A stretch of 63,585 bases of DNA, filler included, from Collodictyon triciliatum (taxonomy: Eukaryota), in NCBI GenBank assembly GCA_043381765.1. It is 21 parts of 21 records of this genome, joined end to end, with 100 filler letters (N's around TTAATTAATTAA, not from the genome) between each part and the next. Parts side by side here need not be neighbours in the genome. Positions count along the whole stretch, not along the records: positions 24,604 to 27,574 come from JBHJMP010007987.1; 20 more parts are not named here. One strand, 5' to 3'. Every line of letters begins with the position of its first letter. Within the stretch, counting starts at the first letter, position 1. The notes under the pieces were generated by a model. It searched no databases, had not been told where the DNA came from, and worked only from the letters and a program-made list of their open reading frames with translations. The position numbers were made by a program, and so were the translations under genes. Shown here one piece after another: positions 3,078 through 48,797 of this stretch.

Positions 3078-3561
3078 AGACGGCTGCAGCTGTTGGCCCA
3101 ATCCAGGCGATATTTGGGCCTCTGCAACAGCTGCGTCCAGAGGCAAAAACATTCTGGGCAGTGACGCGAGGCCATTTGATATGGACTATGTGGATAGCGC
3201 GCATATACTCACGCAAAGCAAGACTCAACAACCAGCCACCCATTCCCGATAATAGGCTGAATGACATCATACAAATCTCTTTTATCAACATCTTCCTTCG
3301 CCACCTGCACGTCCTCTATTAATCAGACCCTGTGAGAAGAGACATGTGGAAAGAAGCTGAGAAAGAGATTAAACCTCGCCTTGCCTCTCTCATGCAAACA
3401 CAAGACCCAGGCTACAGGCCAAAGCGCAGGATGCAATTCCTGATTACCGATTACTTCTCCACCACCCGGCCACCAAGTAGCGTCCATGCAAACGATGGCT
3501 AGCGAACCAAAGCCAACATCTTCACCATCCTGCACAAAATTGAAAGGAAGAAAAAAAAAAA
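3078..3561 (+). mobile_element. 3' end of an L1/Tx1-like non-LTR retrotransposon (family B) with poly(A) tail
   Basis: Frame reads ...FWAVTRGHLIWTMWIARIYS...FLRHLHVLY*SDPVRR..., a WxxWxxR motif typical of L1-clade ORF2 C-termini. Ends CACAAAATTGAAAGGAAG-A(n). Homologous copies at ~30540, ~36245, ~42440 and ~44515. Confidence 0.8.
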
Positions 3562-3715
3562 CGCTCCAAGTCTCATAGCATTGGTTCATGAAACGGCTTT
3601 AGCCAATCTGTTAACGTTTCCCCCTTTTATTCGGTCCAAACTGCAACGAGGTTATGCCATACCAAGGGCGAGATAGGTGGGCGTGGTAGAGAGCAAACGC
3701 GAGTAGGAGAAAACG

Positions 3716-5632
3716 TTAATGTCGAGAGGCTTTCTCCGGAAAGATATCAGTATAGCCAGTTATCCAATCTGTAAACTTTTGAAATGGAATATGCCAAAGT
3801 AAAATCAAACTGACAAACGAAAAAATGATGAAGGGTATCGTAGTGAAATATGCATTTAGGATAATGAAATAAGCGATTATCGTAAAGAACACCATAACAT
3901 AAATGAATATCACCAGAATCATTATGATATATTGACACAGTCGAATACACAAAATAATTAAACATATCAAAATCACTGGAAAAAGTATAGGCCATAGAGA
4001 CGTATTGCAGTCATCCCCAAAGAAACCAGCGTGGCATTCACACTTGTCGGTTGAAATCTCACACACCCCATTCCCATTACAATCATTGACGCAGTTTCCA
4101 TAATAGAATAGATTCACTTGGCGACTTTTGAGGTTATTTTCATCATAGATATTCATGTCGTTTCCAGTTTCATTACCATGAGCATACACTAATGTTATGT
4201 TTCTGTCAGTGATGGCAATATCATACTTGTCTGATGTGTCAAGACGGCGTGTAAGCTCGTAGATGGTAATCGGCTCTAGAGATTTTGATTGCTGCAACAG
4301 AGATTGAACATCCTCGTGGTCTAGTGATTTCCCAGATGCTAGTTCTCTTTCGATAGAATAATCAACCACCTCTTTTGCTGTGGGGATAGATGTTCGGAGA
4401 TTCCAATTATTCTCACCACCATCGGAAGTATCCAGCCTAACGTGTCCATTATGATCAATCCAAAAGTCGCCTGCTATCCCACTCGAAGATAATGAACTCT
4501 GGCGACATATAACCATGTCAACCCAAGACTGGCGTCCCTCGTCAGATACAAAGCCAATAGCCGCCCATGTTTTTTCGACCTTGACAATCAGCTTGATGTC
4601 GATATTATCGCTATGAATACTCCACTGCATTCGCATCTTAGGGGACAAATCAATCGCAGCGGGAATAGGAATGTGAACTCCTGGTGAAGCATAATTCAGC
4701 AAACATATGAATATGTAATTTCCACCTATTTAAGAACAAAGAGGAGATATAATATATGGAGGATGAAACTCACGGCCGATAGAGCAATCATCCCCGCTGA
4801 AGCCAGGTGAGCACTCACAAGCGTTTTTCGTAACATTGCAGACTCCATGATTGCTACAGCCATTTGGGCAGCTATCGTGATCCATGAAATTCAGTTGGAT
4901 GGAGTTAAAGCTTCGTGTGTCGTATGCAACCATCGTCTTTTCTCCTTCGGACCCGTGCGCATAAATCACACTCAGCTTCTCGTTCGAGATGACCTTGTCG
5001 AATGTGTCGGTCGAATTGAGGGGACGAGTAAACTCGTATGTGGTCTCACGGTCGTGCATTCCAATGAGCCCCATAGCAAACTTCATAAAGTCCTTGTTGT
5101 AGAAGCCAGACTCAAAGAGGGATAAGACAAACTCGTATGCAGTCTCTACTTGCGTGGTAGTTGCTGACTTCAGCACAATATCGTCCGTCCCGCCGAGCTC
5201 AGTGTCCAGCTCGAGTCGGCCGTTTGCGCTAGACCAGTAATCCCGCACCAGCTGCACAGAGGGGTTTTTGGCATCAAACTCGCCCACAGCAATATCAGCC
5301 TCTGTCCCGGACTCCTGGTGAGTTCTAATTCCAATCGCTGCCCACGTACTAGTGTGCTTCACAATAAGCTTGATGTTGATGTGATCATGATCCAGGCTCC
5401 AAATCATGCGCATGTGAGGGGTCAGCTCAACCATAGAGGGAGCTCGGCCGACCACTGGGGTTAGATTTTATAGTTTTGTGAGGGTGAGGATTTCATCAAA
5501 TCATTAGAAAAGTAAATTTTTCCTCCAACAACAGAAAATATATAAAGAAAAGCACCAACCTGAAGAGACATAAGTAAAAAGGATAAAGAAAATCGCAGTG
5601 GTTTGAGCACACGGAAGTCCAGAACGTCTCAT
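3716..5632 (-). CDS. Signal peptide + 2x(DOMON + EGF-like) + C-terminal transmembrane helices
   Basis: Exons 5632-5560, 5454-4774, 4680-3716 splice in frame. DOMON motifs (WAAIG..D; YEFTRPLNSTDTFD; VIYAHG) and EGF motifs (CPNGCSNHGVC..CECSPGFSGDDC) each occur twice; hydrophobic C-terminus. Confidence 0.85.
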
Positions 5633-5798: not shown

Positions 5799-5823
5799 AC
5801 TTTGAATCGAATAAAGGAAAAAA
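5799..5823 (+). mobile_element. Family A micro-retroinsertion
   Basis: ACTTTGAATCGAATAAAGGAAAAAA with degenerate direct flanks ATGTATGTATTATAAGC / AAGTGTGTGTTATGATGC. Confidence 0.6.
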
Positions 5824-9504: not shown

Positions 9505-11893
9505 ATGAACGCTCCGCTCTCCGCACAGCGGCATCGCACACTCAGCCAAATGGCCGAACTCGCCCGCTTGGACGCGATTTCCCCGCCAACGCCACCGCTT
9601 CAAAGCAAAGCGCCGGCGACTCCCGCATCGAATGCGCGTCCCGCTTCTGCGCAGTCCACTCGCTCGATTCGCACCGCATCGGCCCCCCGTGCAAACGCCA
9701 CACCCACAAAGGCGCCGATGCGTGCGGCTTCGCTGGACCGAGGCGCGACTCCGTCCGTGAGTTTGTACGCATTGCGCAGTGGGCGCCAACGAACGCCCGA
9801 CTTGCAGACAAACGGGCAGTACAAGCGTGTCCTGACTGGTGCTGAGTCAAAGGGTCGTGGCAGAGAGGAGCGGCCGAATCCCCGCGGGAGAAGGTAGCTC
9901 TTCATTCCGGCAAAGATATATGTCGATTGTGTGCCTGCTATCGCAGTTGATTTTCTACTTCTTTCCTCTCCCTTTTCTTTTTCTTTTTTTCTTTTTCTTT
10001 TTCTTTTCTTTTTCTTTTTCTTTTTCTTTTTCTTTTTCTTTTTCTTTTTCCTTTTCTTTTCTTTTCTTTTCATTTATTAATATTTTTCCTTTCCTTTTCT
10101 TTTCTGTTCATTTTGTTCCTTTTCTTTATTTGCTTTCACTCATTTATCCTCTATTGAATTGTATCTTAATGGTTACAGTTGTTGAAGGATGATATAATTC
10201 TACTTTCCCTTCATTCGTATGCCTTTCTTTTGAATCCCTTTTGAGCTGCTAATTGTGAGAACCCAAATACGTATTCATCCTTTGTTTCGTATATATAATC
10301 GGCACAGGTCTATGAGTGCTGTAGATGTCGACAAGCATAGAGTTTCCAGAGTATGCGTGCCTCACGTGTCGTATGTCTCTTTATATGCACATTCTGTTAA
10401 TTGACTTTTTCATCGACTTGTTTCCAGTCAAATGGATACTGATGATTATCACTGGCTGGGAAAACTAAAAAAAAAAAAAAAAATCATAAAGGGAGCAAAA
10501 GGTTGCATTCGATCCTTTGCTTCCACAGCCGGTTCTCAGAATGAAAAAAATGGTATTTCTTCGAACTCAATCTTTTAACTTTCAGCATTCGTCTGCTATA
10601 TGTCCTATTCTTGTGTTGTGGAATAATCGTATTAAAATATTATGATAGCTTCTTCCTCTTTTTTATTATTATTAGTTTCATTAATGATGGTGTTCTTGTT
10701 CTTTTCATTGTAAGCATTTTCATTATTTACAGTCTTTTAGGTTTCTTGAATCGATTAAAGGGAAAAAAACTACAGCCTTTTAGGTGACAATATTTTTTCT
10801 ATGTATCCACAAGGTTCTCGACGTGATTGAGACCCTTGGAATTGAAGCAGAAAAGATCAGGAAAATTCAACATTATCCAAAGAAAGTGTTGGCCATGCAT
10901 AAACTCGGTATTACCCAAAAGGGAATCATCCAGGCTTTAGTCGACTATGCGCAAGTAAATACTGCAAGAAATAATGGATGAGATGAATTGAAATTTAAAA
11001 TCTGAAGCGTCTTATCATTTATCCTCTCAAAAAAATTGCCACAGATTACTTTATTATAATGAATTGCTAATTATTATCATATCTATCGTTCAATTAGAAA
11101 TCTCAAAAGGCGGGTCACGATGGCTCTGTTATCCGTCATGAAATGACTGCCTTACTCGCCCAGCTATCTTCTGTGTTTTCAAATATCCAAACAATGCTTG
11201 ACGGGGATGTGTTGCCGTACGGGGTAAACTTTTTAATCTATTTTTACTCTTTTTCTTTCTGTTCTGTTCTGTTCTGTTCTGTTCTGTTCTGTTCTGTTCT
11301 GTTCTGTNNNNNNNNNNNNNNNNNNNNNNNNNNNNNNNNNNNNNNNNNNNNNNNNNNNNNNNNNNNNNNNNNNNNNNNNNNNNNNNNNNNNNNNNNNNNN
11401 NNNNNNNNNNNNNNNNNNNNNNNNNNNNNNNNNNNNNNNNNNNNNNNNNNNNNNNNNNNNNNNNNNNNNNNNNNNNNNNNNNNNNNNNNNNNNNNNNNNN
11501 NNNNNNNNNNNNNNNNNNNNNNNNNNNNNNNNNNNNNNNNNNNNNNNNNNNNNNNNNNNNNNNNNNNNNNNNNNNNNNNNNNNNNNNNNNNNNNNNNNNN
11601 NNNNNNNNNNNNNNNNNNNNNNNNNNNNNNNNNNNNNNNNNNNNNNNNNNNNNNNNNNNNNNNNNNNNNNNNNNNNTTTTTTTAACCTCAGATCTATTCA
11701 TTGTTTAAAGTTCACAAATACAATTGATATTTTCAATTGGATTACTATTATTTTTTTAATCCCACAGATTCCGTCAGACAAAAAGAGTTCGAAGCCAGGG
11801 TCACCTGAAAACCAAACAAACCACAGAAAATCGGACGATATATCAGCAAAATCAAAGCGTTCTGTTGGTCTAGCTACATCACCGCATCAAAAT
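9505..11893 (+). CDS. Multi-exon hypothetical protein (Ala/Pro/Arg-rich N-terminus), partial
   Basis: GC-rich first exon 9505-~9892 ending AAG|GTAG; further exon-like segments ~10814-10952, ~11098-11223 and ~11768-11893; N gap at 11308-11676. Confidence 0.5.
10743..10770 (+). mobile_element. Family A micro-retroinsertion with 15-bp TSD
   Basis: TTCTTGAATCGATTAAAGGGAAAAAAAC between TACAGTCTTTTAGGT (10728-10742) and TACAGCCTTTTAGGT (10771-10785). Confidence 0.75.
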
Positions 11894-14710: not shown

Positions 14711-14732
14711 CTTTGAATCGGATAAAAGGGGG
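14711..14732 (+). mobile_element. Family A micro-retroinsertion with degenerate TSD
   Basis: CTTTGAATCGGATAAAAGGGGG between AAATTGTCGGCCTCATC (14694-14710) and AAATGTAGGCCTTGTC (14733-14748). Confidence 0.65.
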
Positions 14733-15683
14733 AAATGTAGGCCTTGTCTCTTTTTCTTTTTCTTGTCGGATTTTCATTTCAAATACTATTTAATTGGAAC
14801 AACACTATTATCATCTCACACGTAATCTTTATATTGTTTAGCTCGTTTGTGAAGCGTTAATTTATTTATTTGCGCATTTATTCATTTATTCATTTATTCA
14901 TTTACTCATTTACTCATTTATTCATTTATTCATTTATTCATTTATTCATTTATTCATTTATTCAACCTGCAACCTCCTGGCGCAAACGGTTATAAAAGCA
15001 CGGATATATTGCGACTGATAGCAGCCATCAAGCTCAGGAATTACAAAAGCCTTCATCAATAAATGATTAAATCTTAGGAATGATTAATGAAACTAGTTGA
15101 TTGCGGGGATGTGAGAAAACAAAGCAACTCTCCTAGAATCCTTGTTTCACTTCCCGACCTCTGCTATCGCCCATAAGCACCATCATCTAACAAAGCCCTT
15201 CTCTAACTCCCATTTCACGTACACACGATCTATTTCAGTATCAATTTTTTAAGCATTTTTTTTAGTTTTTTTTAGTTTTTTNNNNNNNNNNNNNNNNNNN
15301 NNNNNNNNNNNNNNNNNNNNNNNNNTTAATTAATTAANNNNNNNNNNNNNNNNNNNNNNNNNNNNNNNNNNNNNNNNNNNNATATTTTCTTTTTCTATTT
15401 ATATTTTCTTTTTGTACTTGTTTTTGTACTTGTTTTTGTACTTGTTTTTGTACTTGTTTTTGTACTTGTTTTTGTACTTGTTTTTGTACTTGTTTTTGTA
15501 CTTGTTTTTGTACTTGTTTTTGTTTTTGTTTTTGTTTTTGTTTTTGTTCTTGTTCTTGTTCTTGTTTTTGTTCTTGTTCTTGTTCTTGTTCGTGTTCGTG
15601 TTCGTGTTCTTTTTAAAAAGTAATAATAAATGGTTAATGAAAGTGTTTTTACTTTCTTCTAACTCTTAATATAAAATAAAAAG

Positions 15684-17361: not shown

Positions 17362-17583
17362 CCACACCGATATATTCTACGTGATGTTCAAACCGCCGGC
17401 AAGCTTCTCTTTTTTTTCATTTTTGTGCAATACTTTGCACATCGCTTTGTTATTTAATCACTGGCATAAAAATAAACATACCCCCCAATTTTTGATAAAT
17501 ACCATCGGAACTCTGTCTATCATCTTCTATCTCTCTTCTCCTGGGTGTATGCAACAATTGTGATCTATATAAATGGTGTTGTT

Positions 17584-18361
17584 TCTCCCTTATTCGATTC
17601 AAAGTACAGAAAGGTTAAGTCGTACAAAGGGCGAGTAATAAGAGTATGATAGATAGCGGGTGCGGGCAGAAGATTAGTGGAAGAAGCCACCACCGGAAAG
17701 AATTGTTGATACCGAGTTTGTTCAGGCGGGCGACCCACCTTTCGCTGGTGGTCAGAGCAGTGAAGAATGTGGGCGTGTTTCAGCAAGCTAATCTACAAAC
17801 TGGTTTGCACAAGGCTCTCTTTTCCGTAGGATGGTTTCAAGTGCTTCGTGGTTCACATAGTCGTATGCTTTCTCCAGGTCGTAGAAAATCATAGTGCGAG
17901 GTGTCTCGCTTACTTGATATTCCATGTACTCTTTGTTGACAACCCAGATGTTTGTGTCGATGTTCCTTCCGTTCATGAAGCCAATCTGCTATTTGGATAT
18001 GAGTTTGTCAGCAATGGGTGATATGCGATTTCTGAGTAGCGTCGTAAATATCTTGTAGTCGTTATTCAACAGCAATATTGGCCGCCAGTCTACAAGATTG
18101 CTCGAGTTTCCTTTCTTTGGTATCAGCCGCACCGTGGCCTCTGTAAATCCTTGTGGTAGGTCGCCACCAGACATGATTCCATTCAGAAAAGTCACTAAGG
18201 ATGCCTTGACCTCATTAAAGAAAGCAGAGGATATTCCGTTGGGCAGCGTGTCTGAGCCTGGCGCCTTTCCGTTGTGCAGCGACTTGACCGCTTTCCACAA
18301 TTCGCCTGCATCTATTGGTGCTATCATGCTGGCTGCTTGCGAGGGTGAAGCCTTAGAGCAG
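17584..18361 (-). mobile_element. Degenerate, internally deleted L1/Tx1-like LINE (family A): RT fragment joined to the 3' terminus
   Basis: KAPGSD..P, LIPKKG...DWRPILLLNNDYKIF, *QIGFMNGRNIDTNI, DLEKAYDYVNH are non-LTR RT motifs; in-frame stops present. Ends ...TACTTTGAATCGAATAAGGGAGAAA. Confidence 0.9.
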
Positions 18362-21532: not shown

Positions 21533-21613
<81 letters not shown>

Positions 21614-24603
21614 TCTTTTTTTGTCTTTTTTCCATATATATATTTCAAACGCGCATCGAAAACCTCTGCTGAAGAGAAAGGTGATATATTCATAAACATA
21701 GCAAAAGGCCACAACAGCTGCTCGAGTTCCCGCTTATGTATTCACACTTGGACGAGGAGAACGATGTGAAGTATCTTCGCCTCTCGCAAATTGCCCAGTA
21801 TCTGACTCTTATTGAGGTATAAGCATACATTTTTGTTGTCGCACACCATCGAAAACAAGCTTTAATAATTTCACATACCAGCACTCACTCTCCATGAAAC
21901 CAATTTCATTCAACTGCACCCACCTAGGCATCTGCTATCATTCTATTTTTTTCCTTATCATTTTTCTTTTCCTTTCTGTTGCATTATTTTTTTTTACCTA
22001 AAATTACCTTTTTTTTATTTTTATTTTGTTTCTGTTTCTTTTCATACTATTTTCATAACACTTTGATTTCTTTTCATCTCTTTTATTTCTATTTCTCTTT
22101 CTTTTCCATTTTTCTCTTCCATATATCTTTTGCTACTATTTTTATCTGTAGTTTTACATGTAATATATTTGAAAGAAGAAGAAGAAGAAGAAAAAAAAAA
22201 GAAGAGAAACAACCTCTTTTCGTAGATGATCCATTTGCACTTGCTCGACCACGACTTGCTCGTGCTGATGCTACGCGGCTTTCACCTGGTTAGCTCTTAT
22301 CTTGCACATTACCGAGACGCCTTTTATTTTATTTCATCTTCGCGGGGCCATTGAGGGGCTTGTCCCCACCGCGCGAATTCAGACTCGATATTTTTGAAAA
22401 GAATAAGGCTGAACAACCTCGTCATTTACGCACCCGTAGGCGCTTCTTTATCGCTGGCCGATTATATCTCTCCAGTCGTCATGGTTCGTCTCCTCCGTGC
22501 TTTTCTCGAACGTGTCCATCATCGGGATCCACTGCTTCTTCCGAGTCAAGAATTCAGTCTTCCTTGATTACATCACCGACCATGACGGTATAACTCATCT
22601 CATACAGTTCATTACAGAGTGGGAGTGAGGGAAAAAGAAAAACATCAAACAGTTTACTTTTTCATGACAACAAACTATTCAGAGAATTATCATGGTCATA
22701 TCTTTTACATGGTACATAACTTGCGCCTCTTTTCTCCCAGCTGCGCCAGCATCGGTGGTCCATTTGATCTTTGTCGATGTAGTTATTGCTGGTTTGCAAG
22801 CTCTTCACATATGGAGTCGGGTTCGCAGCTACCGTTCTCACTCCCGCGTCGGTCGAAACGAGGATTGAATAGCAGCTTTGGGCCAACCCTTGTTTTTGCC
22901 TTCTCATTCTCTGTTTCTTTCGCTTTCTTATCTGATGCCATCCATCCGGTTGCTGTTGATAGACTTTCATCCCCGCAGAAGAAGAAGAAAAGGAGGAGGA
23001 GAAGAAGAAGAAGAAGAAGAAGAAGAAGGAATATAAGTATATAAAGATAAAGAATGATATTAACCAAGCCATGAAGACTCTATCGTCTGCCACCGGCCTT
23101 CCATGCAAGATAAACTAAGGCAATCGCATGTCATTCTCGCACAACCGCATACACAAGACCAAAACCAAACTTGCGATTTGTTGGCTGGTGAGAATCATCA
23201 GAGCTGCGTATCAATGGGATTTCCTCTGCATGGAGAAAAAGAACTATGGTCGTTTCTCTGCGGATCTAGACAGAAGCAGGAGAGCCCCTTTGCTGAGCAG
23301 AGTGCCGCATAATCGCTTCATCTTTTCTTTTTCCTTTTCCTTTTTCTTTTCCTTTTCCTTTTTCTTTTCCTTTTCCTTTTCCTTTTTCTTTTCTTTTCTT
23401 TTTCTTTACTTTTTTCTTTACTTTTTTCTTTACTTTTTTTCTTTACTTTTTCCCTTTTCTTTTTCTTCTTTTCTTTTTCTTTTCTTTTCTTTTTCTTCTT
23501 TTCTTTTTCTTTTTCTTCTTTTCTTTTTCTTTTCCATTTCTTTTCCATTTCTTTTCTTTGCTTTTTTCTTTTCTTTACTTTTTTCTTTACTTTTTCCCTT
23601 TTCTTTTTCTTCTTTTCTTTTTCTTTTATGTTTTTCATTTTTCCTTTTATGTTTTCCTTTTCCTTTTCCTTTTCCTTTTCCTTTTCCTTTTCCTTTTCCT
23701 ATTCCTTTTCCTTTTCCTTTTCCTTTTCCTTTTCCTTTTCCTTTTCCTTTTCCTTCTCCTTCTCCTTTTCTTTTACATTTCTCGCGATTAAACTGAACTT
23801 TACAGAAGACGGCCATGGACAGGATGCAGAGGTTGGTTGTTGCGATAGGCGGGGCTGCTTTGGCGCTCCGTCTGGGCTTTGCTTTTTCGCCGAGGCTGCA
23901 CATCTACACGCGTCGAGCAGCGTTGATTCTTGGCGCGTTGGCGTCTGTGTCGTGGCGCCGATTCTGGAAGGGGCCTTTGCAGCCCGGTTGGCCGTTTTTG
24001 CTGGAGGTCATCCTCAAAGTCATGCGCTCTGGCCCGGCACCGGTTTCGATTCAGTCTCTTGTGAGGATTGCTCAGCCTCGTCACAAACAGCGTTGGCTCT
24101 TTTTTCCTTTTTTTTCCTTTTTCATTCTTTTTTCATTCTTTTTTCATTCTTTTTTCATTCTTTTTTCATTCTTTTTTCATTCTTTTTCAATTTTTTGGGG
24201 TAGTAATTCTTTATCACCGCCGCTGCATAATTATCATAGTCATCCTTGTTGTGCTTAAATCTTTTTTATCTTTTTATCTTTTTATCTTTTTATCTTTTTA
24301 TCTTTTTTTATCTTTTATCTTTTTTTATCTTTTTTTTATCTTTTTTTATCTTTTTTATCTTTTTTATCTTTTTTTTGTCTTTTTTTATCTTTTTTATCTT
24401 TTTTATCTTTTTTATCTTTTTTATCTTTTTTATCTTTTTTATCTTTTTTATCTTTTTTTATTTTTTTTATCTTTTTTATCTTTTTTATCTTTTTTATCTT
24501 TTTNNNNNNNNNNNNNNNNNNNNNNNNNNNNNNNNNNNNNNNNNNNNTTAATTAATTAANNNNNNNNNNNNNNNNNNNNNNNNNNNNNNNNNNNNNNNNN
24601 NNN

Positions 24604-24852
24604 TTTTTTTCATGCGCTGTGTTGGTGGTAATGAGACGCCTTAGGGAATGCGAATTTGTCCGAGTCTCCTTTACGAAAGGAATCCTCTCGGCTGCCATCA
24701 CGTCCACGCAGCAGTTTATCCTGGTTGGCACAGAGGACGGTGTACTCAACATCGTGACATTTGTGCCTACGCATCCGCACGCATCCCCACCGATTTCGTT
24801 TGCGCGACGAACGAGCTCGAACTCAAATCGTACCACTTCCTTTTCATCTTAA
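24604..24852 (+). CDS. C-terminal end of a WD40 protein, possibly BEACH-family
   Basis: ILSAAITSTQQFILVGTEDGVLNIV resembles the last WD blade of BEACH proteins; short fragment only. Confidence 0.35.
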   Translation, partial: FFSCAVLVVMRRLRECEFVRVSFTKGILSAAITSTQQFILVGTEDGVLNIVTFVPTHPHASPPISFARRTSSNSNRTTSFSS

Positions 24853-25219
24853 GCGCCTTCCTCTCAGCCTCCCTTTCATTCACTATTTCACTTGCATCTT
24901 TGCTGGCACTTTCACTTACACCGACAGACTCATTCACCCCCTCCGCTTCTAACTCGTTTCAATCTGATATAAAGAACATCATAACGAAATACGTGCCCCC
25001 CCCAGAAAATCGTGCTGGTGTCTTGGACGCAAACGCGGTCCGACGAGGAGCAGGTAACTGATGAGCCAGGTTCTCTTTGACCTTTCCCCGGGTTTTTTTC
25101 TTTGGCAGCTAAAAAAAAAAAACCAGCTCGAATATGGATTTACAGAAACTGGGGAATCGGCCCCTGCGTGCAGCTACAGTCACACCAGCTGGAATGCATA
25201 TTAAGATTGTATTCATTTT

Positions 25220-25247
25220 ACTTTGAATCGAATAAAGGGAAAAAAAA
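25220..25247 (+). mobile_element. Family A micro-retroinsertion with 17-bp TSD
   Basis: ACTTTGAATCGAATAAAGGG-A8 between AAGATTGTATTCATTTT (25203-25219) and AAGATTGTATTAATTTT (25248-25264); pre-insertion site TT/AAG. Confidence 0.85.
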
Positions 25248-25442
25248 AAGATTGTATTAATTTTCTCTGCAGAGACCCTTTTCATTTAGTTTTCATTTGA
25301 TCCCATGTGATATTCATTGAAGAATTTATTGTGACGAGGAAAAAGGAAGGAATGGAGGGAAGGAAGAGGAAAAGTTAAAAAAAAATTGAAGGAGGAATTG
25401 AAAGGGAGTGAAGAAAAAGGGAAGTGGTGTTCAATCGGCAAA

Positions 25443-27150
25443 TTATTTGGGTTTTCTTTTCTTTTCTTTTTTTGAGGGTGAAGAGAATGCACGTCGATTT
25501 GCTCCCTTCTGTTTTGTTTCCTCTTCTTTCTGGGTGATTAACTATCACCATTTAGCTTGGTTTAGATTTTCCAAACATACGTTTGACAAATGACAACTTT
25601 GGAGCCCCGGTTGGCGTCTGTGGCTTGGTCTCTGTGCTTTTTGCGGGTGCAGCTAGATTTGGATAGATATATTGATAGATAGATATTAATCCATCGTGCG
25701 ATAACCGAGACAGAAGAAGAAAATCGGCGTGACGAGAAAGCAAATGGATTGTGGAAAAAAAAATTTCTTTTATTCGATTCAAAGTTGGATTGTGTAAAAT
25801 TTTTATAAGAAAAAATAAATGAATGTAAAATGATTGAATGGAAGGCCAAATGATTAGGAACTGAAAAATAAATGACAAATGCTAGAGCTGGTGTTACTAT
25901 TGTTACTATCAGAAAGAAAAAAAGTTTGTGTAAACCCCCTGTCAGCAGATTGGTACATGTATATATATTTCAATAAATCGATGAATGAATCAAGGCAACA
26001 AACCAGAGACCCCATCAGGAACCGGCGCGCCTTCCAGGTCCTTTGCCGTGATTTCCTGCGAGGGGCTCGAGTTGAGAGGATTGACAAAGATCTCAAAGGA
26101 CTGGTCGACCTTTGGCGAGTGGATGCGGAACGACTCCTGTACTCGAGCCTTGGGCTGCATAGGACGCGACCCGCTATCAGTCGTGGCTGGGAGAGCGAGT
26201 GCAGCAGGATTGGACAAGTCCATCGACTGCGGACGCGGCGGCGGCGCGCCGAGCGGACGTGGCTTTGCTGCACGCGCTTTGGGCTGCATCGGCGGGATGG
26301 TCTGGACCGATGGCGGCGATGCGCTGGGGCTGTGTGGCGGGTGCTCAAAGGTTGTCCACTCCAGCGGCTCGCGGAGCGTGTTTCCGCGGCGACACGAGAC
26401 GCTCGGGTTGTGTAGGGCCATCATGATGAGGTTTTGGTCGGCCTCGTCTGTGGACACAGGGTTTGCTTCAGGCAAGGCAGCCGAGCGAAAGGAGGCGGCG
26501 GGCGGCGGAGGCGGCGGAGGCGGAGGCGGTGGGGTTGATTGTGTCGGGACAGACGGACTTTGTGGTAATTCTTGTACAGGCTTTTGAATCTGTGTCTGTG
26601 TCTGTGTCTGTGTCTGCATCTGTATCTGTGGTGCCTGTGCCTGTGTTTGTGTCTGTATGCCTTTTTGTGAACGATAGGAGGAGAGACGTGCCGTGAGTTT
26701 TGGTGATTAGGACAAATGCGGCCTCAGTGCACAGCGCTTGGCGATGACAGACTTACTTGCTAGTTCCGGGTGCAGAGCCTTAAGATCCTTCAGGACAATG
26801 GCCATGGACGGGCGGCCTTCCATGTCGAAGGAGCAGCACCGGAAAGTGAGGGATGCGTAGGATGGCGGTGTGTCTCGAGGCAGGCGCTGCTTGGCGTGGA
26901 TCATGTCGACTCCCCGACTGACGTTATGGCGGATGCAGTCTTGGTTTGGTTTCTGTCGAAAGATGATTTCCAGCATCACGATGCCGAACGAAAACACATC
27001 TGCTCGGTCGTCGTATGCATAACCCTGGGCAACTTCCGGCGGAATCCAGTCTTCAGTGCCGCAGATTGTCATACGGCGAGCTATTCCGTCGTTTTCCACA
27101 GTTCTGGCAAGACCAAAGTCGCATATTTTAATTTTAAAGTGCTCGTCGAC
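25443..27150 (-). CDS. TKL-group (LIM kinase/LISK-like) protein kinase, C-terminal part with Pro-rich tail
   Basis: KICDFGLAR...MTICGTEDWIPPEV...DVFSFGIV...RPS in exon 27150-26757; Pro-rich exon 26660-~26003; short terminal exons to TAA at 25443. Confidence 0.85.
25767..25785 (-). mobile_element. Family A micro-retroinsertion (minus strand, in a kinase intron)
   Basis: Reverse complement ACTTTGAATCGAATAAAAG, flanked by TGGATTGTGGAAAA..TTT (from 25745) and TGGATTGTGTAAAATTT (from 25786). Confidence 0.7.
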
Positions 27151-30539: not shown

Positions 30540-30644
30540 TATTTTTTTTATTCTTCCTTTCAATTTTGTGCAGGATGGTGAAGATGTTGGCTTTGGTTCG
30601 CTAGCCATCGTTTGCATGGACGCTACTTGGTGGCCGGGTGACGG
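30540..30644 (-). mobile_element. LINE family B 3' end (runs into the gap)
   Basis: Near-identical to ~3462-3560; ends CACAAAATTGAAAGGAAGAATAAAAAAA on the minus strand. Confidence 0.85.
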
Positions 30645-35492: not shown

Positions 35493-36244
35493 CACGTTTG
35501 GCATATAAAACTTAGTCCCCCAATTATTCCCCTAAAATATCCAGTGAGCGTAATCGTAGGCTTTTTCTTATATGTTAAAAAAATTAGCAAATATTGATGC
35601 CACATTTAAAAAAAAACTGGAATAGATGAGCAGCGCTGCAATCCCAAGTATAATATGCTTAGACGAGAGAGAAAAACGGCATTCATATTTTTGCAAAAAA
35701 ATAAAATAAAATAAATATATATGTGTCATAAAAAAGGGATTATATTCACCAAATCTAGAAATGAAGAAATATGAAGGGTTCATCAATTAAGACTTTTTGA
35801 TGGCTCGATAAATGCTATTTAAAGAAAATAATAACAATTGTAAATCTTCAGATGTAATAATAACATGCAACGAGCACAAAAATGTAAAGAAAATTATCAT
35901 ACATACTCTGAGAAAAATTCATAACATTAATTTACCCACACTACACTTTTATGCATGCATTTTTTGAAATCATATTTTATATTACACTAGGAAAAAAATA
36001 TATTTTACTCTTTGTTTTCTGCAATAAGGAAATACACACCCTAAATGTATACTCCCTCTATTATTTGCATAGCATGTCCCTAACAAGGTAGCGCTGTACT
36101 ATTTGATCAAAGGTGCCAGTTTGGTTTAGTCCAACTACGACCGCCCTGATATCGAATTGCTATATCCCACGGAAAGTTCATCTAGCTTTACTATAAAATA
36201 ACAACTAATTTTTAGGTGAAAAATAATTTAAGGTTTTATGTTTT

Positions 36245-37728: not shown

Positions 37729-39691
37729 AAAAAGGAAAAAGAGGAAGAAGATAAAGAAAGGAGAAAAAAGAGAAGAGAAAAGAAGGGGGAAAAAAAAGCA
37801 GAATAAACCATTACGATCAAGTTGTACCTTGTATTGATTGGGAGAAATAACTGTGGGCGGGGCTTTGCTCTTCTGGCCGAGAACCGGTGCTGATTTGACC
37901 CATGTCTCAATTTGCTTGTCCCATGTGTATTGGCGGATGTAATCTATGAAGAGCAAAAGAATTGTCAAAGGACCGATGTCTCCATATTTAAAAAAGAATA
38001 AGTTATTCACGACATCCCCGCAAATAGGAGGAAAACTGCAAGGGAAAGCTCGATGAATGATATGAATATTCCGATTTACCGATGATTCCAACCACAAGCT
38101 CATGATTTTCTTCATCGATTCCCACCAAAATCGAATAGTCCACCACGTTGACTGAGCTCAAAAACTTGGTGTCGTTTGAAACACATATCTTGAGATAGTT
38201 TTTGGACATCATGGAAGTGTACAACGGGCACGTGTAGAGAACTGCAAAGAGTGCGGAAGGGAGAGGAAAAATGAGAATACTGAATCGCTGGAATGATGGC
38301 TAATTATTTTTCTATATCATAAAAGTGTAAACGAGAAAACTATATGAATATAATTTGGACAAGTTTATACACTCGAGGAAGTTTTGGTCCATCAAGACGG
38401 TATCTTGGTTTGTGGTTCGCACATATCGACTGCGGGTAGAGCCTTTCAAGTCAAATACCTTTAAATTTCACGGATAAATAAATAAATAAATAGATAAAAA
38501 AAACACAAATTATTGTTTTTAAAATATAATGATGATGATAATGATAATAATAATAATAATTATAATAATAGTCGATATGTCAAGTTATCGTTTGGAATGG
38601 TGTCGATACTTTTTGTGATAAAGAACCCCGATTAAGAAAAAAAAATGCATTTTATAAAAAAGGATTTATCTATCTTGTGCCCATATTTTTTTAAAATGCT
38701 GGTGATAGATAAAGGGTTGAATTATGACAGAGAATACAAACTCTTGATATTTGGCGACCATAAAACAGATTTTCCATAATTATAACATCCTGAATGTGAT
38801 ACGGTGCCCCAGGAATGTTGTTACGGTATCCCACCTTGAATATCCCCAGAATGCGGGTAATGGCCGAAGGAATCTATGTCACCACAGATATTATGTGATG
38901 ATTTCATACAGAATAAAGAATACTCGTTGGTGTAAAGAAAAGGTATCTCAAAAGACAAAATATAAAATACCATGTAGAACGAAAAAAAACTTTGAATCGA
39001 ATGAAGGACAAAAACAGGACTAAAATACCTTGTGGAATGAAACTCTAGACATGTACTTGAAATATTCATGAGCAAGCGATATGAAATGATCTTTTTCAGT
39101 CTTTGATATTTCTTTGATAACGAAACGATCATCTAGTACGCATACACAGAAAAAAAAAAAAAAAGAAGTGTGAATAAACCGATCTGACTTCAGGACACTA
39201 ATAGGAATGGAACTGTAGTAATAATTCTTTCGTCATATCTTCTTTTTTCTATTTGGAGAAAGTGGGGCCATTGAAAGTGAAATTATACCCAAAGTCTTTG
39301 AGAATGTGGAGCCTGACTTTCCACCAGTTGCAGACCATTTTTTACACCGACTAACTGACTGCAAAAACTGGTCTTCATCTACACCATACATTTTTCTCAA
39401 AGCTTGGAATTGCCTTGCATAGTACGATATGCATACGAAATGAGTTTTCGTTCCTTCATCATCCTCCACAAATTCTATTGTTCGTAAAAGAAGACAGCAA
39501 AAAATAATAATAAAAAATATGAATAAATGATGTAAAGCTCTAAAAATAAAACAATTTTAATGACAGAAAGGAGGAAATCACGTCTTAATCATAAATACAT
39601 TTCTTAAGGCACAGAAATAATAATAAAAAAATCTGAGGGCCTACTATGCTTTATATGTGTTTTGGTGGGATCATGTAGGTAACTCAGTATA
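37435..39691 (-). CDS. FAB1: PI3P 5-kinase FAB1/PIKfyve, C-terminal kinase domain (partial)
   Basis: YARQFQALRK...SRCKKWSATGGKSGSTFSKT; FDLKGSTRSR; NDTKFLSSVNVVDYSILVGID...[48 protein letters not shown]. Confidence 0.95.
38985..39020 (+). mobile_element. Family A micro-retroinsertion with 22-bp TSD at a FAB1 exon/intron junction
   Basis: ..ACTTTGAATCGAATGAAGGACAAAAA.. between TAAAATACCATGTAGAACGAAA (38963-38984) and TAAAATACCTTGTGGAATGAAA (39021-39042). Confidence 0.75.
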
Positions 39692-41239: not shown

Positions 41240-42714
41240 GCATCATGTTCAAAATACACAAGAAACTATTGTTGTGAGATGTCAAAATTGACAAAAAAAA
41301 AATAAAGAATAAGAATAGGAAAAGGAAAAGGAAAAGGAAAAGGAAGAAAAATGAGGGAAATTGAGAATAAGATGAGAATATTCGCTTCATAGCCTTACAA
41401 AGATTTTGCCAGCAGGACACTAAGAGATCCTATCATAGCAGATGTAATTGAATAGCAACCTATTTGTTTGAGTGTCTTTCTGGTGTCTCCAGCGTTCTAG
41501 AGTTTAAAGAGTTTATTCAAACATTATAATACTCATACACACGTTGAAGCATTATTTAGCTTCACAAATGTTAATCGACGAAGTAAAGCAGAGCTACTTT
41601 ATCATAGTCCAGTTTGTAATAAACCAGCGTCAATCCGACTGCTGCGACGAAAACGAAACATATGTAAACAATAAAAGATGTTTGCATGTACATCACATAA
41701 AGTTCATCGACAGAGTAATCTGCATGAATAATATATAGTTGTTATCTATTTTGGTTTAGGAGATTTAAAAATATTTGTCGTTCAGTCCATATTGTTGTTG
41801 CTATTCTTATTGTATTATGTTATTACAATTAATATATTTATTGGTATATTTATTAGTATATAAAAGGCAAAGCAGATAAGATATATGACAATTTTACTTT
41901 TCGATTCATGGCTCGCAAATAATAGAGTGAAGGTGTTTCCCAACACAATTACACAAGTCCCCTCTACCACTCTGCGAGTAACCTGGTAATATTTCTCTAT
42001 AAATATTTTCGAAAGGCCCAAAATCATTCGAACCAATAAAATGATTGAATATATCCTCTACATCATATTATGTCATATCATTAAAATATGTCGTTTAAGC
42101 TATTTCAATAGAAGCGAATGATTTAAGGATTGATTATCATCCATCTAAACAATAATAAAAGCATTGAACCTTCTCGTCTAACAATAAAAATGCAAATATG
42201 ACGTTAGAGACAAATTGTATACTCCCAATGCAGGCCAACAAGCTCTGTGCGGCATACCCAAAAGACATGAAATTAAAGGCATTTCCAATGGAAAAAATCA
42301 CTATTCCTATTTTCATTATGTCCATTTAAAAAATTAGTTCCAAATGCCACTTTCTCGCACAACTATTTTAAAGGTTTGATTTTGGTGGATAAATAAGCCT
42401 CATAAGCTTTGATATAAATAAAATGCTGGGTAAAATAATTTTTTTTTTCCATTCCTTCTTTCAATTTTGTGCAGAATAGTGGAGATGTTAGCTTTGGACA
42501 GGGTAAAATAAGTTATATTCAAATGACAAGAAGATAACGCACCCATAAAATATGTAAACAAACCTATTGTCCATGAATGTTTTTGCCAATTACTGAGTGA
42601 CAGTGTATGGGACTCATTAATTATGTGAGAGTACTTCATCAGATTTGTTCCAAGATTAATTGTAATGGAACCAACAAAATTGAGTGCCATTCCGATTGTC
42701 CAATTGCGAGACAT
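40085..42714 (-). CDS. NIPA-family Mg2+ transporter-like membrane protein (3'-partial)
   Basis: GSITINLGTNLMK; GNAFNFMSFGYAAQSLLACIGSIQFVSNVIFA; RLNSGLRKFPSMIIVPALQVFWTVFSILSGGIYFGEF. Confidence 0.88.
42439..42498 (-). mobile_element. LINE family B 5'-truncated stub (~60 nt) with TSD, in NIPA intron 1
   Basis: Reverse complement ...CTGCACAAAATTGAAAGAAGGAATGG-A(n); GGGTAAAATAA at 42428-42438 and 42501-42511. Confidence 0.75.
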
Positions 42715-43194: not shown

Positions 43195-45660
43195 CCTTAA
43201 AAAGGGAAGATAACAACCGACGTTGAAAGTAAAGAGTCGCCTGCATCTGTTGTTTCCATCTCAAAAACATCACATGTTTTAAATCACGACTAAGGCCTGA
43301 AATCATAGCGCTCATCAAATAGCGGATGCGCTTATTTCTTTGACAGACCTAATATATATAGCACCGACACATACAGAGATTGAGTTATTTAATAGTTAAT
43401 AAGTATGAATAAGAAAGCAATTGAATTAAATCTCTTCGAGAGAAAAACAAAAAAGTCTTACATTTTTCCAACAGATCAGCGTGTGCCGAGCAAATCTCTG
43501 AAAGCGTGATAGTTCAAGCCATTCAAGAAGAACCTGAAATAAGTCATTTTTAGATGTATATAAATGAAATGTGTCTCATAGTCTCTATTAACATAATTTA
43601 ATTTTAGGTTGGACGATAACCACAGACCTTTTTCAACAAAACACTCTGATTATGCCTCTTCGATACGCTCTTCTTGAAGGATTTTTCCTTTCAATATTGG
43701 GAAATAAACATCAGAAATAATAATCAACTAAGCATATAGGGAATGAAAAATATTTAAGACTAGATAATAAATTATGGATCTCGAAAACCTTTGATAATTG
43801 TACGAATATCTTCCAACTATCCAAAATTAGGGAGAGCAGTCTCCTGCAAATTTAAAACTCCAAATAAAGAAGTGCTCTCATATACCCATAGATTTCTATT
43901 ACGAGTTTTTTTTTCTCACGTATGCAGTTTTCTTTTTTTTTAAAGATTTTTTTCAAAAGAAGCAGAACCTTCGCCTTGATTCAAAATGAATTTTTGATCG
44001 TTTGTTTTTCTCTTCGAATTGATCAGCTGTTCGTTTCCAGTAAAGAAACATGCTTCGTTTTCTAACAAAGAGAGACGTAAGCAATATGAATATTTCATTT
44101 CATGCATATATGTCCCTGGTTATGCGCCTGCTAACATTTTCGTGGTTGTCATGTCGAGGCGCTGTCGAACAATTTTTGCTTCACGTACTCTTTGCATACA
44201 AAAAACTCGCCTAAGAAAAGCTAATCAATTAATGGACTAATTGACATTGTCTGAACGTTTCCTATATATAATAACGCGTTATTTTTTTCAAAGGATGTAG
44301 CGCAACACGACATCAATGTAGATTACCATCTATAAAAATAAAGGGATAAAATTCCACGTGATTTCTTCAGTAATTGAAGGGCAACTTTTCTTTTGCAAGA
44401 AAATTCATATTGGTATCGCAAAAACCACTTTCTGTAATAATTCTCCACCTAAGGTATAATATACTTTCGGTTAAGCTTCCAGAGGGCAGAATGAAACTAA
44501 GATTTTTGAAATATATTCCACCATCCTGCACAAAATTGAAAGGAAGAATAAAAAAAAGATTTTAGAAATATTTTGCCTTCATACAATTAATTTTTCTGAT
44601 TTTAAAGAATAGATTTTCCGGCGCCTCTCCATGCTGGTATATCTCATCCAAAACCTAGAAAAATCGTGATTATGTTTCCATTCTTCCTCGAAGTATATTT
44701 CAATATTCAGAATAATAAACATATTTATGAAACGAATTATTTGGAATTTTCTTACATGAATATTTTCTTTATTCTAATCTCCTTTCTGAATTCTGACACT
44801 AGTTTCCTCTGTTGTGATTCTAAGTTTGTTTTAAATAATTATACGAACCAAAATGAGACCCATCTCATACATTTCTTTTAAAAATAGATTTAAATCACTT
44901 TGTCGACTATATTGCAGCCATTTGTAAAATAAATCTGAAAGCCTCCTTATTTTCCATTTGGAATAACCCACGTCAACTCTTTCGCTCTGAACCTAATAAC
45001 AATATATATTTAAAAATTACGATAAGCTATTGTTTATAGTCTGAAATAATCACTTATTATTATAACCTTAAGTCTCCTAGAAAAAAGCATCCATTTCCTA
45101 AATGCTACAAATCGTAGGCGCCCAAAGAAGTAGATACCGACCTATGGACATATTTAATACATTCAATAGATAGCGTATCTCGAAATGTGAAGGAAAAATC
45201 TCAAACATTAAATCGGAGAGACCATTTCGGTGGGCTAGTTAGGTGTCATATATGTCAACCTGATTCATCACGTGTTTTTTTCGCTTCCATTCTATTGTGC
45301 GAGCTAACCATGACTGTAAACATATACTCAAAACACGACGACTCAACGTGTGAGATATTTCTAGTTGGACAGAACGCAACCACTAGGGTGATTTGAAAGT
45401 TTGGTTCAATGGAAAACATGCACTATTACGAAATACATAATCAAAAAAGTCATAAAAGAAATACAAACACTTTGCTGGCGAGTCCACGCTTGCCACCGTT
45501 TGAATATATATAATCCTTTGTCTTTGAGCCTTGCCTCACGGAAGCAACACACTAAATACGCAATAATAAGTAATTGATTAAGGAAGTGGCGAGCTCGAAT
45601 GGTTCATTCCCATGCTACTAACCAACAAGTCTCATCTTCGACCTCAAACGAGAGTGGTTA
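43195..45660 (-). CDS. Multi-exon protein with Trp-containing helical repeats (Sfi1-like), partial
   Basis: Exons reading LFYKWLQY, IFKRWQAW and VLLEWLEL..LICWKN resemble centrin-binding Sfi1 repeats; the exon chain is not fully resolved. Confidence 0.4.
44515..44555 (+). mobile_element. LINE family B 5'-truncated stub (~41 nt) with 16-bp TSD
   Basis: CCACCATCCTGCACAAAATTGAAAGGAAGAATAAAAAA between AAGATTTTTGAAATAT (44499-44514) and AAGATTTTAGAAATAT (44556-44571). Confidence 0.85.

Positions 45661-48715: not shown

Positions 48716-48797
<82 letters not shown>

Follow-up and report, generated by a model that had tools for sequence, protein, structure and literature searches.

How does a piece of about 20 nucleotides, identical to the very end of a LINE, come to lie on unlinked contigs of one genome, and why do most of its copies start at nearly the same base? 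The DNA that raises this question (hereafter the window) is a stretch of 63,585 nucleotides from Collodictyon triciliatum, made up of 21 unlinked eukaryotic contigs of about 3 kb from a highly fragmented assembly, with spacers of the form N44-TTAATTAATTAA-N44 between them. L1 truncation points are widely spread. SINEs carry a Pol III promoter head and measure about 80 nt or longer. An earlier note on this DNA had described a dispersed micro-retroposon with a fixed start, and had offered a defined template, a strong RT stop or host slicing of LINE RNA as possible causes. A literature search yielded no description of a fixed insertion of about 20 nt from a LINE tail and no paper on the motif itself; supplements and subscription journals lie outside its coverage, so that absence is unproven.

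In this study, we show that the micro-copies are identical to the tail of a LINE (family A) and carry A tails and target-site duplications (TSDs) of variable length (14-22 nt). We further show that the 5' boundary of family A is non-random and that this behaviour, judged against a second family known from five copies only, is specific to family A.

A short motif dispersed over unlinked contigs

With up to two mismatches allowed, the 16-mer TTTGAATCGAATRAAG matches the window eight times (5801+, 10745+, 14712+, 17588-, 25222+, 25768-, 38991+ and 57233+), as compared to a mean of 0.25 expected from 100 shuffles, none of which reached eight matches (0/100). The 20-mer with up to three mismatches gives six matches versus 0.00 expected. 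The dispersal over unlinked contigs that had been claimed from reading is therefore real. Nine family-A copies (n=9) were counted in 61 kb; the copies of the motif are diverged by 0-4 changes, and at three places the motif runs on into LINE 3' UTR. The motif contains AATAAA.

Micro-copies are flanked by target-site duplications

The type micro-copy occupies 25203..25264 on the plus strand. TSD1 (25203-25219, AAGATTGTATTCATTTT) is followed from 25220 by ACTTTGAATCGAATAAAGGG and A10, matching the 20-mer with 0 mismatches, and then by TSD2 (25248-25264; 17 nt, 1 mismatch). The interval 25203-25264 singled out in the earlier note thus consists of exactly TSD1, the insert ACTTTG...GGG-A10 and TSD2. 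A second copy on the same contig (25745..25799, minus strand) has its insert at 25764-25785 (ACTTTGAATCGAATAAAAGAAA) between TSD1 at 25786-25799 and TSD2 at 25745-25758 (14 nt, 1 mismatch), and its A tail merges into the A/T-rich target. An older copy at 10728..10785 (plus) comprises TSD1 (10728-10742), the insert 10743-10770 (TTCTTGAATCGATTAAAGGG-A7-C) and TSD2 (10771-10785; 15 nt, 1 mismatch); the insert equals the type copy in length, its first bases being TT, not AC. The copy at 38963..39042 (plus) has the longest duplication, with TSD1 at 38963-38984 and TSD2 at 39021-39042 (22 nt, 3 mismatches), and its insert (38985-39020) consists of four extra A, then ACTTTGAATCGAATGAAGGA, then a decayed A-rich tail.

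Less well preserved flanks are found at the remaining micro-copies. The copy at 5799..5823 (plus; ACTTTGAATCGAATAAAGG-A6) has the tail variant that is also found in L001, a related metagenome copy of the LINE, and stands in TG/TA-rich flanks with a weak direct repeat (score 7). The decayed copy at 14711..14735 (plus; CTTTGAATCGGATAAAAGGGGGAAA) starts at the C (19 nt) and matches the 20-mer with 3 mismatches; by eye, AAATTGTCGGCCTCATC and AAATGTAGGCCTTGTC form a possible imperfect TSD, with a score of only 7. The seventh micro-copy, 57233, scores 8 on an exact 8-nt repeat.

Taken together, a TSD score of at least 11 was reached by four of the seven micro-copies (10745, 25222, 25768 and 38991) versus 5.6% of 3000 random window positions (binomial, hand-computed: P about 3e-4). 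Most copies had been said to have direct flanks: this holds for these four of seven, and not for 5801, whose flanks show no convincing TSD. Lengths (14-22 nt) and sequences of the duplications differ between copies. In three of the four TSD-bearing micro-copies, exactly 2 nt separate the end of the upstream repeat from TTTG. A tails are preserved as A6-A10 in 5801, 10745 and 25222, short or merged in 25768, decayed in 14712 and 38991, and absent in 57233. The junctions of 25222 and 25768 are clean, with 0 extra bases, and inspection by eye for microhomology found nothing shared at the upstream target ends.

One longer family-A copy has the same hallmarks. At 3599..3776 (minus), the LINE 3' end (3626-3759, tail GTTTGGACCGAATAAAAGGGGGAAAC) lies between TSDs at 3760-3776 and 3599-3615 (17 nt, 2 mismatches) and is 81% identical to L001. 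It is an ordinary 5'-truncated copy of 136 nt, and the weak site at 3617-3640 (minus) listed earlier proved to be part of it. Because TSDs are present in four of seven micro-copies as well as in the 136-nt copy, we regard these as insertions by target-primed reverse transcription (TPRT). Two other readings of the motif, as a U12-type branch site or 3' splice site and as an initiator-like start, were dropped by eye; the micro-copies include the AC.

A LINE with an L1-like RT ends in the motif

The long family-A fragment lies at 17579..18361 on the minus strand, measures at least 780 nt, runs off the contig end and terminates in the tail ACTTTGAATCGAATAAGGGAG. It consists of the N-terminal part of an RT with one stop, an internal deletion that joins RT to 3' UTR near 17819-17826, and the 3' UTR. 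The motif forms the 3' end of this fragment, the matches mapping to positions 756-772 of the LINE-fragment query, just as had been read before; it is likewise the tail of L001. The window copy and L001 both run off their contigs, and the 5' part of family A, in which an L1-clade element would carry an APE-type endonuclease and ORF1, is contained in neither.

Among solved structures, human L1 ORF2p is the best relative of the family-A RT (E 1.5e-11 to 3.7e-11), R2 being far weaker (E 0.024). A homologue search for the RT returned one relative with 34% identity. Pfam RVT_1 gives a weak match to the 123-aa RT fragment (E 0.0021, below the cut-off), and the ORF2 C-terminus of L001, a relative and not the window copy, matches zf-RVT (PF13966; E 1.5e-7, 32.4 bits vs a cut-off of 27.5). 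By these similarities family A is probably an L1-like LINE. The proposal of TPRT by an L1-type LINE is thus upheld by the TSDs, the A tails and the closest solved relative of the RT. Between the window LINE and L001 the 20-nt tail is identical at 19 of 20 positions, as compared to 68% identity over the enclosing 171-nt HSP, which suggests that the terminal 20 nt are a constrained module.

The 5' boundary of family A is non-random

Six of the nine family-A copies begin 19-20 nt upstream of the A tail. Among these, four start exactly at ACTTTG, one has the same length and one starts at the C; the other copies measure about 29 nt (ambiguous), 136 nt and at least 780 nt. The fixed start claimed previously therefore stands for four copies to the very base, and fails for 57233 with its 8 extra bases. 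Apart from the ambiguous copy of about 29 nt, the window contains no family-A copy of 8-18 or 22-135 nt. Family A does not show the spread of truncation points that is typical of 5'-truncated LINEs.

One alternative is that 5' truncation is random as usual and that the apparent mode reflects the shortest copies which a motif search of 16-20 nt can detect. A 16-mer search is indeed blind to copies below 16 nt, and copies of 39 and 58 nt in the second family (see below) indicate that this genome tolerates extreme truncation. However, scans with a floor of about 8-12 nt gave no convincing shorter copies; A-rich BLAST matches and three AATGAAGGGAA 11-mers were inspected as candidates, and none was convincing. 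Smooth null models, scored for at least six of nine copies within a 3-nt window together with at least two copies of 100 nt or more, reproduced the pattern in 0/20,000 simulations. A very steep exponential is the only null that clusters the copies, which then gather at the floor. A smooth distribution, or a mode set by the detection limit, had been named as what would overturn the fixed start; within the window neither was found, and we consider random truncation very improbable.

Family B, another poly(A) retroposon in these contigs, served as control. Its copies are of 39, 58, at least 99, 311 and at least 485 nt. The shortest (44501..44571, plus) consists of 35 nt and A8, the BLAST match being 39 nt, with a 14-nt TSD (1 mismatch); the next (42428..42511, minus) of 52 nt and A10 (BLAST match 58 nt) with an exact 11-nt TSD. 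A copy at 30542-30640 (minus) aligns over 99 nt and runs toward the contig end at 30644, and another at 36233-36542 (minus) covers 311 nt at 89% identity to the long copy at 3078..3562 (plus), whose length is at least 485 nt provided that it extends to the contig start. Since these truncation lengths vary, the fixed start is specific to family A.

What may set the boundary

A structural cause in the RNA found little favour. The 3' UTRs of the window LINE and of L001 fold no better than shuffled sequences (z -0.59 and 0.12), and their consensus fold brings no covariation gain (term +1.68). The 30-nt element, too, has no structure beyond that of shuffles. The CTTT/AAAG mini-stem proposed in the earlier note has to be abandoned: it reaches -0.3 kcal/mol, a value equalled or bettered by 105 of 200 shuffles. 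Rfam at the gathering score assigned no family to the window; at E<=5 it gave 0 matches on 17500-18361 and, on L001, two weak lncRNA chance matches lying elsewhere than the boundary. ARAGORN reported no tRNA or tRNA-like match. With no UTR fold beyond shuffles and no ribozyme or tRNA-like match, a structural block to the RT is less likely.

The reading that we tentatively prefer, at somewhat less than an even chance, is that the micro-copies are TPRT insertions by the L1-like family-A machinery in which only the last 20 nt (ACUUUGAAUCGAAUAAAGGG) and the poly(A) were copied, the template ending there. The terminal 20 nt would be a conserved module bound by the ORF2 protein of the element. Degradation or host cleavage of LINE RNA may then leave a 3' fragment protected by protein and poly(A), the cut presumably lying between a pyrimidine and an A (U|AC in the window LINE, C|AC in L001). 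The RT would prime on the poly(A) and, after copying 20 nt, run off where the fragment begins; this short cDNA would then be joined to the upstream target end. Run-off would be expected to leave 0 extra bases, as in 25222 and 25768. A host process of a general kind, measuring from the poly(A), would be expected to hit family B too, and no such mode is seen among its five copies. Also against this reading, the first bases deviate in two micro-copies (TT at 10743, four extra A at 38985), and 57233 ignores the boundary. With low confidence, the product under this template-end reading would be a dead-on-arrival 'nano-copy', not self-propagating, and each copy would also deposit an AATAAA signal. 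If the fixed product is real across the genome, an L1-type enzyme would be able to complete integration from a template of 20 nt and A's, which to our knowledge is well below any SINE size.

In a stricter form, a precisely processed 20-nt poly(A) RNA would be the main template integrated, with the RT-bound LINE module freed by host dicing, slicing or exonuclease footprinting; this we hold to be less likely than not. If it applies, the micro-copies would be the smallest retroposed unit known, the genome would preserve in its DNA the trace of a defence or decay step acting on RNA, and AATAAA signals would be spread with a density of about one per 9 kb.

The main competitor of the template-end reading is abortive TPRT on full-length LINE RNA, where the RT primes on the poly(A) and copies the 20-nt tail, the passage from initiation to elongation often fails and host repair resolves the stalled cDNA. 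The cause could be a protein roadblock, the hold of the RT itself on the tail or a modified base at -21. This course of events, to which we give a substantial minority share of belief, predicts the same DNA products, namely TSDs, A tails, a fixed boundary and family specificity. The conserved tail (19/20) fits an RT binding site with rate-limiting release, and the copies of 136 nt and at least 780 nt would be events that escaped the stop. Against it, though not decisively, the folding values given above reveal no stable structure upstream of the boundary, and stalls are usually ragged, yet four copies share the same start base and two have 0 extra bases. The DNA facts fit either a 20-nt poly(A) RNA that was cut beforehand or protected, or an RT that stopped abortively; of defined template, RT stop and slicing, the three options of the earlier note, none is singled out.

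A jump between terminal repeats would also yield an exact boundary defined by sequence, family specificity and strong conservation of the 20 nt. Here, family-A RNA would start with the same 20 nt with which it ends, in the manner of a retroviral R region, and once the 3' copy is made the cDNA would anneal to the 5' copy and run off, with one repeat and poly(A) as the product. No second occurrence of the motif heads a LINE-like sequence in the window, however, and we know of no terminal repeats of this kind in L1-type elements. We consider this mechanism improbable.

Independent sequence data

The single contig 24604-27574 was compared with sequencing runs, and most of it is without cover; no run reaches half of the contig's words, the best share being 0.11. 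In a lake metagenome (run X2, record 10), a 151-nt piece covers 25762-25909 including the 25768 copy with 0 differences, and this copy is hence no artefact of the present assembly. In run X1, the flank is about 99% identical at a depth of 7.3. Among the eight records listed of 39 from this run, seven are unitigs of 31-48 nt on 25219-25254, starting at 25219 (four), 25220 (two) and 25221 (one). Their depths range from 4 to 155, which is contig depth and gives no copy number, and the assignment of the run to RNA or DNA is guesswork. Of the four unitigs that start at 25219, three have a first letter that falls outside the match, which indicates that differing bases precede the A of ACTTTG. Among the run pieces listed on this contig there is neither an empty site nor a joint spanning one of its two micro-copies. 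Piles from runs X2-X4 on 26494-26547 are GC-rich, have less than 95% likeness and continue into unrelated sequence; they were ignored.

The X1 unitigs listed, which begin at or beside the A of ACTTTG, count in favour of the template-end reading. The records also bear on two further explanations. The first is a true micro-SINE, i.e. a separate master gene with an external promoter whose poly(A)-ended RNA of about 20 nt mimics the LINE tail and parasitises its RT. The defined 5' end, the preponderance of micro-copies (6-7 vs 2 longer copies in the window), the break of the X1 unitigs at the A of ACTTTG among the eight records listed of 39, and a first base that is a purine after a pyrimidine in both LINE subfamilies all speak for it. 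On the other hand, 20 nt are too short for an internal promoter, and since the TSDs adjoin the 20-nt unit directly, the copies carry no promoter. Rfam and ARAGORN find no tRNA-, 7SL- or 5S-like head, and the window holds no candidate master locus. A transcript of about 20 nt is, moreover, unlikely to be polyadenylated. A micro-SINE thus appears a poor prospect.

The second denies a retroposed element altogether and takes the motif for a regulatory or poly(A) signal, or for an assembly or library artefact. The AATAAA in the motif and the fragmented window assembly would suit such a view; the differing TSDs, the 0-4 changes among copies, the X2 piece and the continuation into the LINE 3' UTR at three places contradict it, and we give it hardly any credence.

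Wider searches gave little else. An exact-pattern scan of a metagenome collection found two loci, the relevant one being L001; the other, L002, is a chance match within unrelated sequence. The same scan returned 0 matches in a viral collection and one in a prokaryote genome collection, which lies in a bacterial MAG and is attributed to chance.

Relation to known systems

The micro-copies resemble 5'-truncated L1 in their poly(A), in TSDs of about 14-22 nt, in mostly T-rich|A-rich targets, in the L1-type RT and in being dead on arrival. They differ in that six of nine family-A copies share an end point to within 1-2 bases, 20 nt from the tail, while the second family in the same DNA is truncated in the ordinary way. 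The extreme in humans is an insertion of poly(T) only, in NF1 exon 25, interpreted as an Alu, L1 or processed pseudogene with severe truncation (PMC3219598).

The Drosophila 'suffix' is about 265 bp long. According to two reports, this short retroelement occurs as separate conserved copies and also as the 3' end of the F-element LINE (PMC1868783, PMC3136478). It is akin to the present unit in being discrete, in having a defined start, in its identity to a LINE 3' end and in its dispersal apart from the LINE; unlike the non-coding 20-nt unit here, suffix spans hundreds of bases, overlaps the end of the RT coding region and is itself transcribed.

If mobilised as RNA, the micro-copies would be SINE-like, being non-autonomous, poly(A)-ended and in competition for an L1-type ORF2 protein, although independent mobilisation is hypothetical here. 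A defined 5' end together with a LINE-derived 3' tail is a SINE feature that they share. Unlike SINEs, they have only 20 nt, no head and no promoter. For Alu, a 46-nt 5' domain is reported to be needed for retrotransposition (PMC12199147).

Should the fixed product hold genome-wide, it would mark a discrete and normally invisible step of LINE retrotransposition, either a checkpoint at which TPRT passes from initiation to elongation, or a step in which LINE RNA is precisely cleaved or protected beside the poly(A). Units of 20 nt are below the detection limits of standard repeat annotation, so that much retroelement activity in compact genomes could be overlooked.

An atypical copy within a WD40 gene

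By Pfam, the window genes encode WD40, pentapeptide, LRR, DOMON-EGF, AIG1-like GTPase and kinase domains. An alternative genetic code was considered for in-frame stops in neighbouring genes and rejected; as the stops are mixed (TAG, TGA and TAA), these genes were read as pseudogenes or as containing introns, the code being unchanged.

The copy 57233 (57217..57275, plus) is located within a WD40 ORF of 989 aa. Exact 8-nt repeats (TGGTGAAT) at 57217-57224 and 57268-57275 bracket 43 nt including TTTGAATCGAATATAG. With about 29 nt, 8 extra bases before TTTG and no clean A tail, this copy does not respect the fixed boundary, and its orientation is ambiguous because the core is quasi-palindromic. 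All 51 nt are in frame and lengthen one WD40 repeat by about 17 residues (FPSFESNIEGKKGPIGE). As the copies carry AATAAA and an A run, and one lies in frame in this gene, such insertions could alter 3' ends and coding sequences.

Short family-A copies are retroposon insertions

The 3' tail motif of family A, an L1-like LINE, is strongly over-represented in the window, which comprises 21 unlinked contigs of about 2.97 kb each (spacers N44-TTAATTAATTAA-N44) and is not a single locus. Allowing up to two mismatches, TTTGAATCGAATRAAG gave 8 matches against 0.25 expected, and 8 were reached in 0 of 100 shuffles, which bears out the earlier note in placing copies of the motif on unlinked contigs. The 20-mer ACTTTGAATCGAATAAAGGG, with up to three mismatches, gave 6 matches against 0.00 expected. 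Positions 25203-25264 correspond exactly to the 20-mer plus A10, enclosed by two copies of a 17-nt direct repeat.

Target-site duplications (TSDs) of the seven micro-copies, i.e. insertions of about the last 20 nt plus an A tail, were scored in comparison with 3000 random window positions, 5.6% of which reached a score of 11 or more. This score was attained by four of the seven, at 10745 (15 nt), 25222 (17 nt), 25768 (14 nt) and 38991 (22 nt), corresponding to a binomial P of ~3e-4 (calculated by hand). The remaining three, 5801 (score 7), 14712 (7; a plausible imperfect repeat by eye) and 57233 (8; an exact 8-nt repeat), are weaker. In three of the four high-scoring micro-copies, exactly 2 nt separate the end of the upstream repeat from TTTG. 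Long A-rich microsatellites and minisatellites, e.g. (GTACAAAAACAA)n and (GATAAAAAA)n, together with uninterrupted A stretches of >40 nt, lie at 15400-15610, 21590-21650, 23300-24500 and 48720-48795 and raise the null level in direct-repeat tests. Mismatches between TSD pairs differ (1/17, 1/15, 1/14 and 3/22) and the cores carry 0-4 changes, which argues for insertions of different ages and not for a single burst. An origin other than retroposition is disfavoured and barely credible.

The 5' end of family-A micro-copies is not random

Nine family-A copies are present in ~61 kb. Four begin at ACTTTG (5799, 25220, 25785 on the minus strand, and 38989, which is preceded by 4 extra A), one of equal length begins with TT (10743) and one begins at C (14711). 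The others are the atypical copy at 57233, a 136-nt truncated copy at 3626-3759(-) and a long copy at 17579-18361(-), which is cut off by the contig end and measures at least 780 nt. The 136-nt copy, found with the related metagenome copy L001 as query, has a 17-nt TSD and substantiates as a normal truncated copy what had been listed as a weak site at 3617-3640 (minus). In the window, BLAST at word size 7 and scans anchored on tail 8-mers turned up nothing convincing at 8-18 nt and no copy at all of 22-135 nt, which places the mode ~7 nt or more higher than the detection floor. When truncation was simulated with log-uniform or exponential models, 0 of 20,000 simulations put 6 or more of 9 ends within a 3-nt window and also gave two or more copies of ≥100 nt; clustering arose only with a very steep exponential, and then at the floor. 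The argument that a fixed start speaks against random truncation is upheld by these simulations and by the position of the mode, and random truncation combined with a detection floor is disfavoured as quite improbable.

Family B, a second poly(A)-tailed retroposon (LINE or SINE) ending in ...CTGCACAAAATTGAAAGGAAGAAT-An, served as internal comparison. A blind screen for short inserts with a terminal A run and flanking direct repeats picked up 10745 and 25222, the cleanest pair among the family-A copies, plus two family-B inserts. The family-B 17-mer has 6 matches against 0.68 expected, five of which were taken as real: 3078-3562(+), 36233-36542(-), 30542-30640(-), 44515-44557(+) and 42439-42500(-). 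Copy lengths are 39, 58, at least 99, 311 and at least 485 nt, and TSDs of 14 and 11 nt flank the two short copies. This genome therefore commonly shows extreme truncation, but a fixed end is seen in family A alone.

Independent sequencing run X1, compared with the contig at 24604-27574, is in keeping with the same boundary. No run covers this contig well. Among the 8 of 39 X1 records listed, seven are unitigs of 31-48 nt confined to 25219-25254, starting at 25219 (4), 25220 (2) and 25221 (1), with depths of 16.5, 4, 19, 12, 155, 75 and 50.8 (contig depth does not equal copy number). Mean word depth is 381 in the 100-nt bin containing the element versus 7.15-7.3 in the bins over 24704-25103. 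Such single-k-mer unitigs imply that the graph branches at either side. The match excludes the first letter of three of the four listed records starting at 25219, hence different bases precede the A, which is what a repeat bounded at that A would give. One 848-nt X1 record matches 24643-25132 (5 substitutions, 5 gaps, depth 7.3). It departs from the window at 24643, directly after AG at 24641-24642, into unlike sequence; the junction resembles a 3' splice site and weakly suggests that X1, whose kind we can only guess, is spliced RNA.

The parent LINE

The fragment at 17579-18361(-) comprises an N-terminal reverse transcriptase (RT) part with one stop, followed by an apparent internal deletion, the 3' UTR and the tail motif. 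Among solved structures its RT is closest to human LINE-1 ORF2p chains (E 1.5e-11 to 3.7e-11), followed by R2 proteins (0.024). L001, found by a metagenome scan for the tail, encodes the C-terminus of a related ORF2, in which a zf-RVT zinc knuckle is recognised (E 1.5e-7), followed by a 3' UTR of ~440 nt and the tail ACTTTGAATCGAATAAAGG-A10. The two 3' UTRs share 81% and 68% identity over two aligned segments, and the tails agree at 19/20 positions. A database search returned a single RT relative (34% identity), so family A is poorly sampled. Compared with L001, the long copy passes from RT (after ...ILRKRE) directly into the 3' UTR at 17819-17826(-) and thus lacks the remaining RT and the zinc-knuckle domain; the join may have arisen by internal deletion or template switching, or may reflect splicing of the LINE RNA.

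Origin of the boundary

The micro-copies arose by target-primed reverse transcription of family A, and their 5' boundary is non-random and specific to this family. The observation in the earlier note is confirmed and its interpretation partly supported, the chief limitation being a small sample of nine copies and one k-mer pile-up from the 8 of 39 X1 records listed. RNA structure, ribozymes, tRNA-like genes and microhomology each found no support as the cause of the boundary. The proposed CTTT/AAAG mini-stem fails, with -0.3 kcal/mol equalled by 105/200 shuffles; the 3' UTRs do not fold above shuffles (z -0.59 for the window LINE, 0.12 for L001), and the consensus fold of three sequences places no helix there (covariation term unfavourable, +1.68). 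Rfam searches gave no ribozyme or other family matching the tail, ARAGORN found no tRNA-like gene, and junctions read by eye show no microhomology between upstream target ends and the element. A jump between terminal repeats is improbable.

We tentatively favour a template that ends at the boundary. The conserved terminal 20 nt would be a module held by the ORF2 protein, and decay or cleavage of the LINE RNA may fall between a pyrimidine and the A that opens ACUUUG (U|A in the window's LINE, C|A in L001), leaving a protected poly(A) fragment; RT running off its end would yield clean junctions as in 25222 and 25768. An abortive RT stop on full-length RNA predicts the same DNA and is a possibility nearly as likely as a template end.

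Family-A copies work like severely 5'-truncated L1 insertions, but do not show the scattered truncation points of L1. In humans, the extreme case of such truncation is an insertion of poly(T) alone in NF1 (PMC3219598). Drosophila suffix, which is far longer than the micro-copies and is transcribed, comes closest in concept. It is a discrete element that also forms the F element's 3' end (PMC1868783, PMC3136478). The micro-copies have no promoter head and are therefore not SINEs; for Alu, the smallest domain reported to function measures 46 nt (PMC12199147). An independent master gene is likewise an improbable source. Full-text literature searches, supplements and subscription journals aside, turned up neither a fixed ~20-nt LINE-tail product nor the tail motif.

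Window and host

GC content per 2 kb varies from 27 to 47%, and the genes are eukaryotic (WD40 and pentapeptide repeats, LRR, DOMON-EGF, an AIG1/septin-like GTPase, a kinase). Pieces of 151 nt with 0 differences from the contig at 24604-27574, within 25543-27158, were found in each of X2-X4, lake or freshwater metagenomes from three studies; the organism, or a near-identical strain, thus occurs in those waters and is a freshwater dweller. Single in-frame stops break long reading frames at 835-2841(+), 3716-5467(-) and 25990-27198(-): TAG in the pentapeptide-WD40 gene (the repeat's TGG changed to TAG), TAA in the DOMON-EGF pair and the kinase gene. Because stop types are mixed, a variant genetic code was rejected and the frames are read as pseudogenes or containing short introns. 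Regular spacing of BLAST matches by 105 nt points to a tandem repeat of that unit length at 19559-19988, inside a 374-aa ORF (19083-20207(-)) without Pfam match. Within the ORF 55298-58264(+), a 51-nt in-frame insertion at 57217-57275 consists of 43 nt and a single copy of the repeat TGGTGAAT. The insertion contains the family-A core and extends a WD40 repeat by ~17 residues (NGE-FPSFESNIEGKKGPIGE-YWL), leaving the 989-aa frame intact; it is possibly an exonised retroposon fragment.
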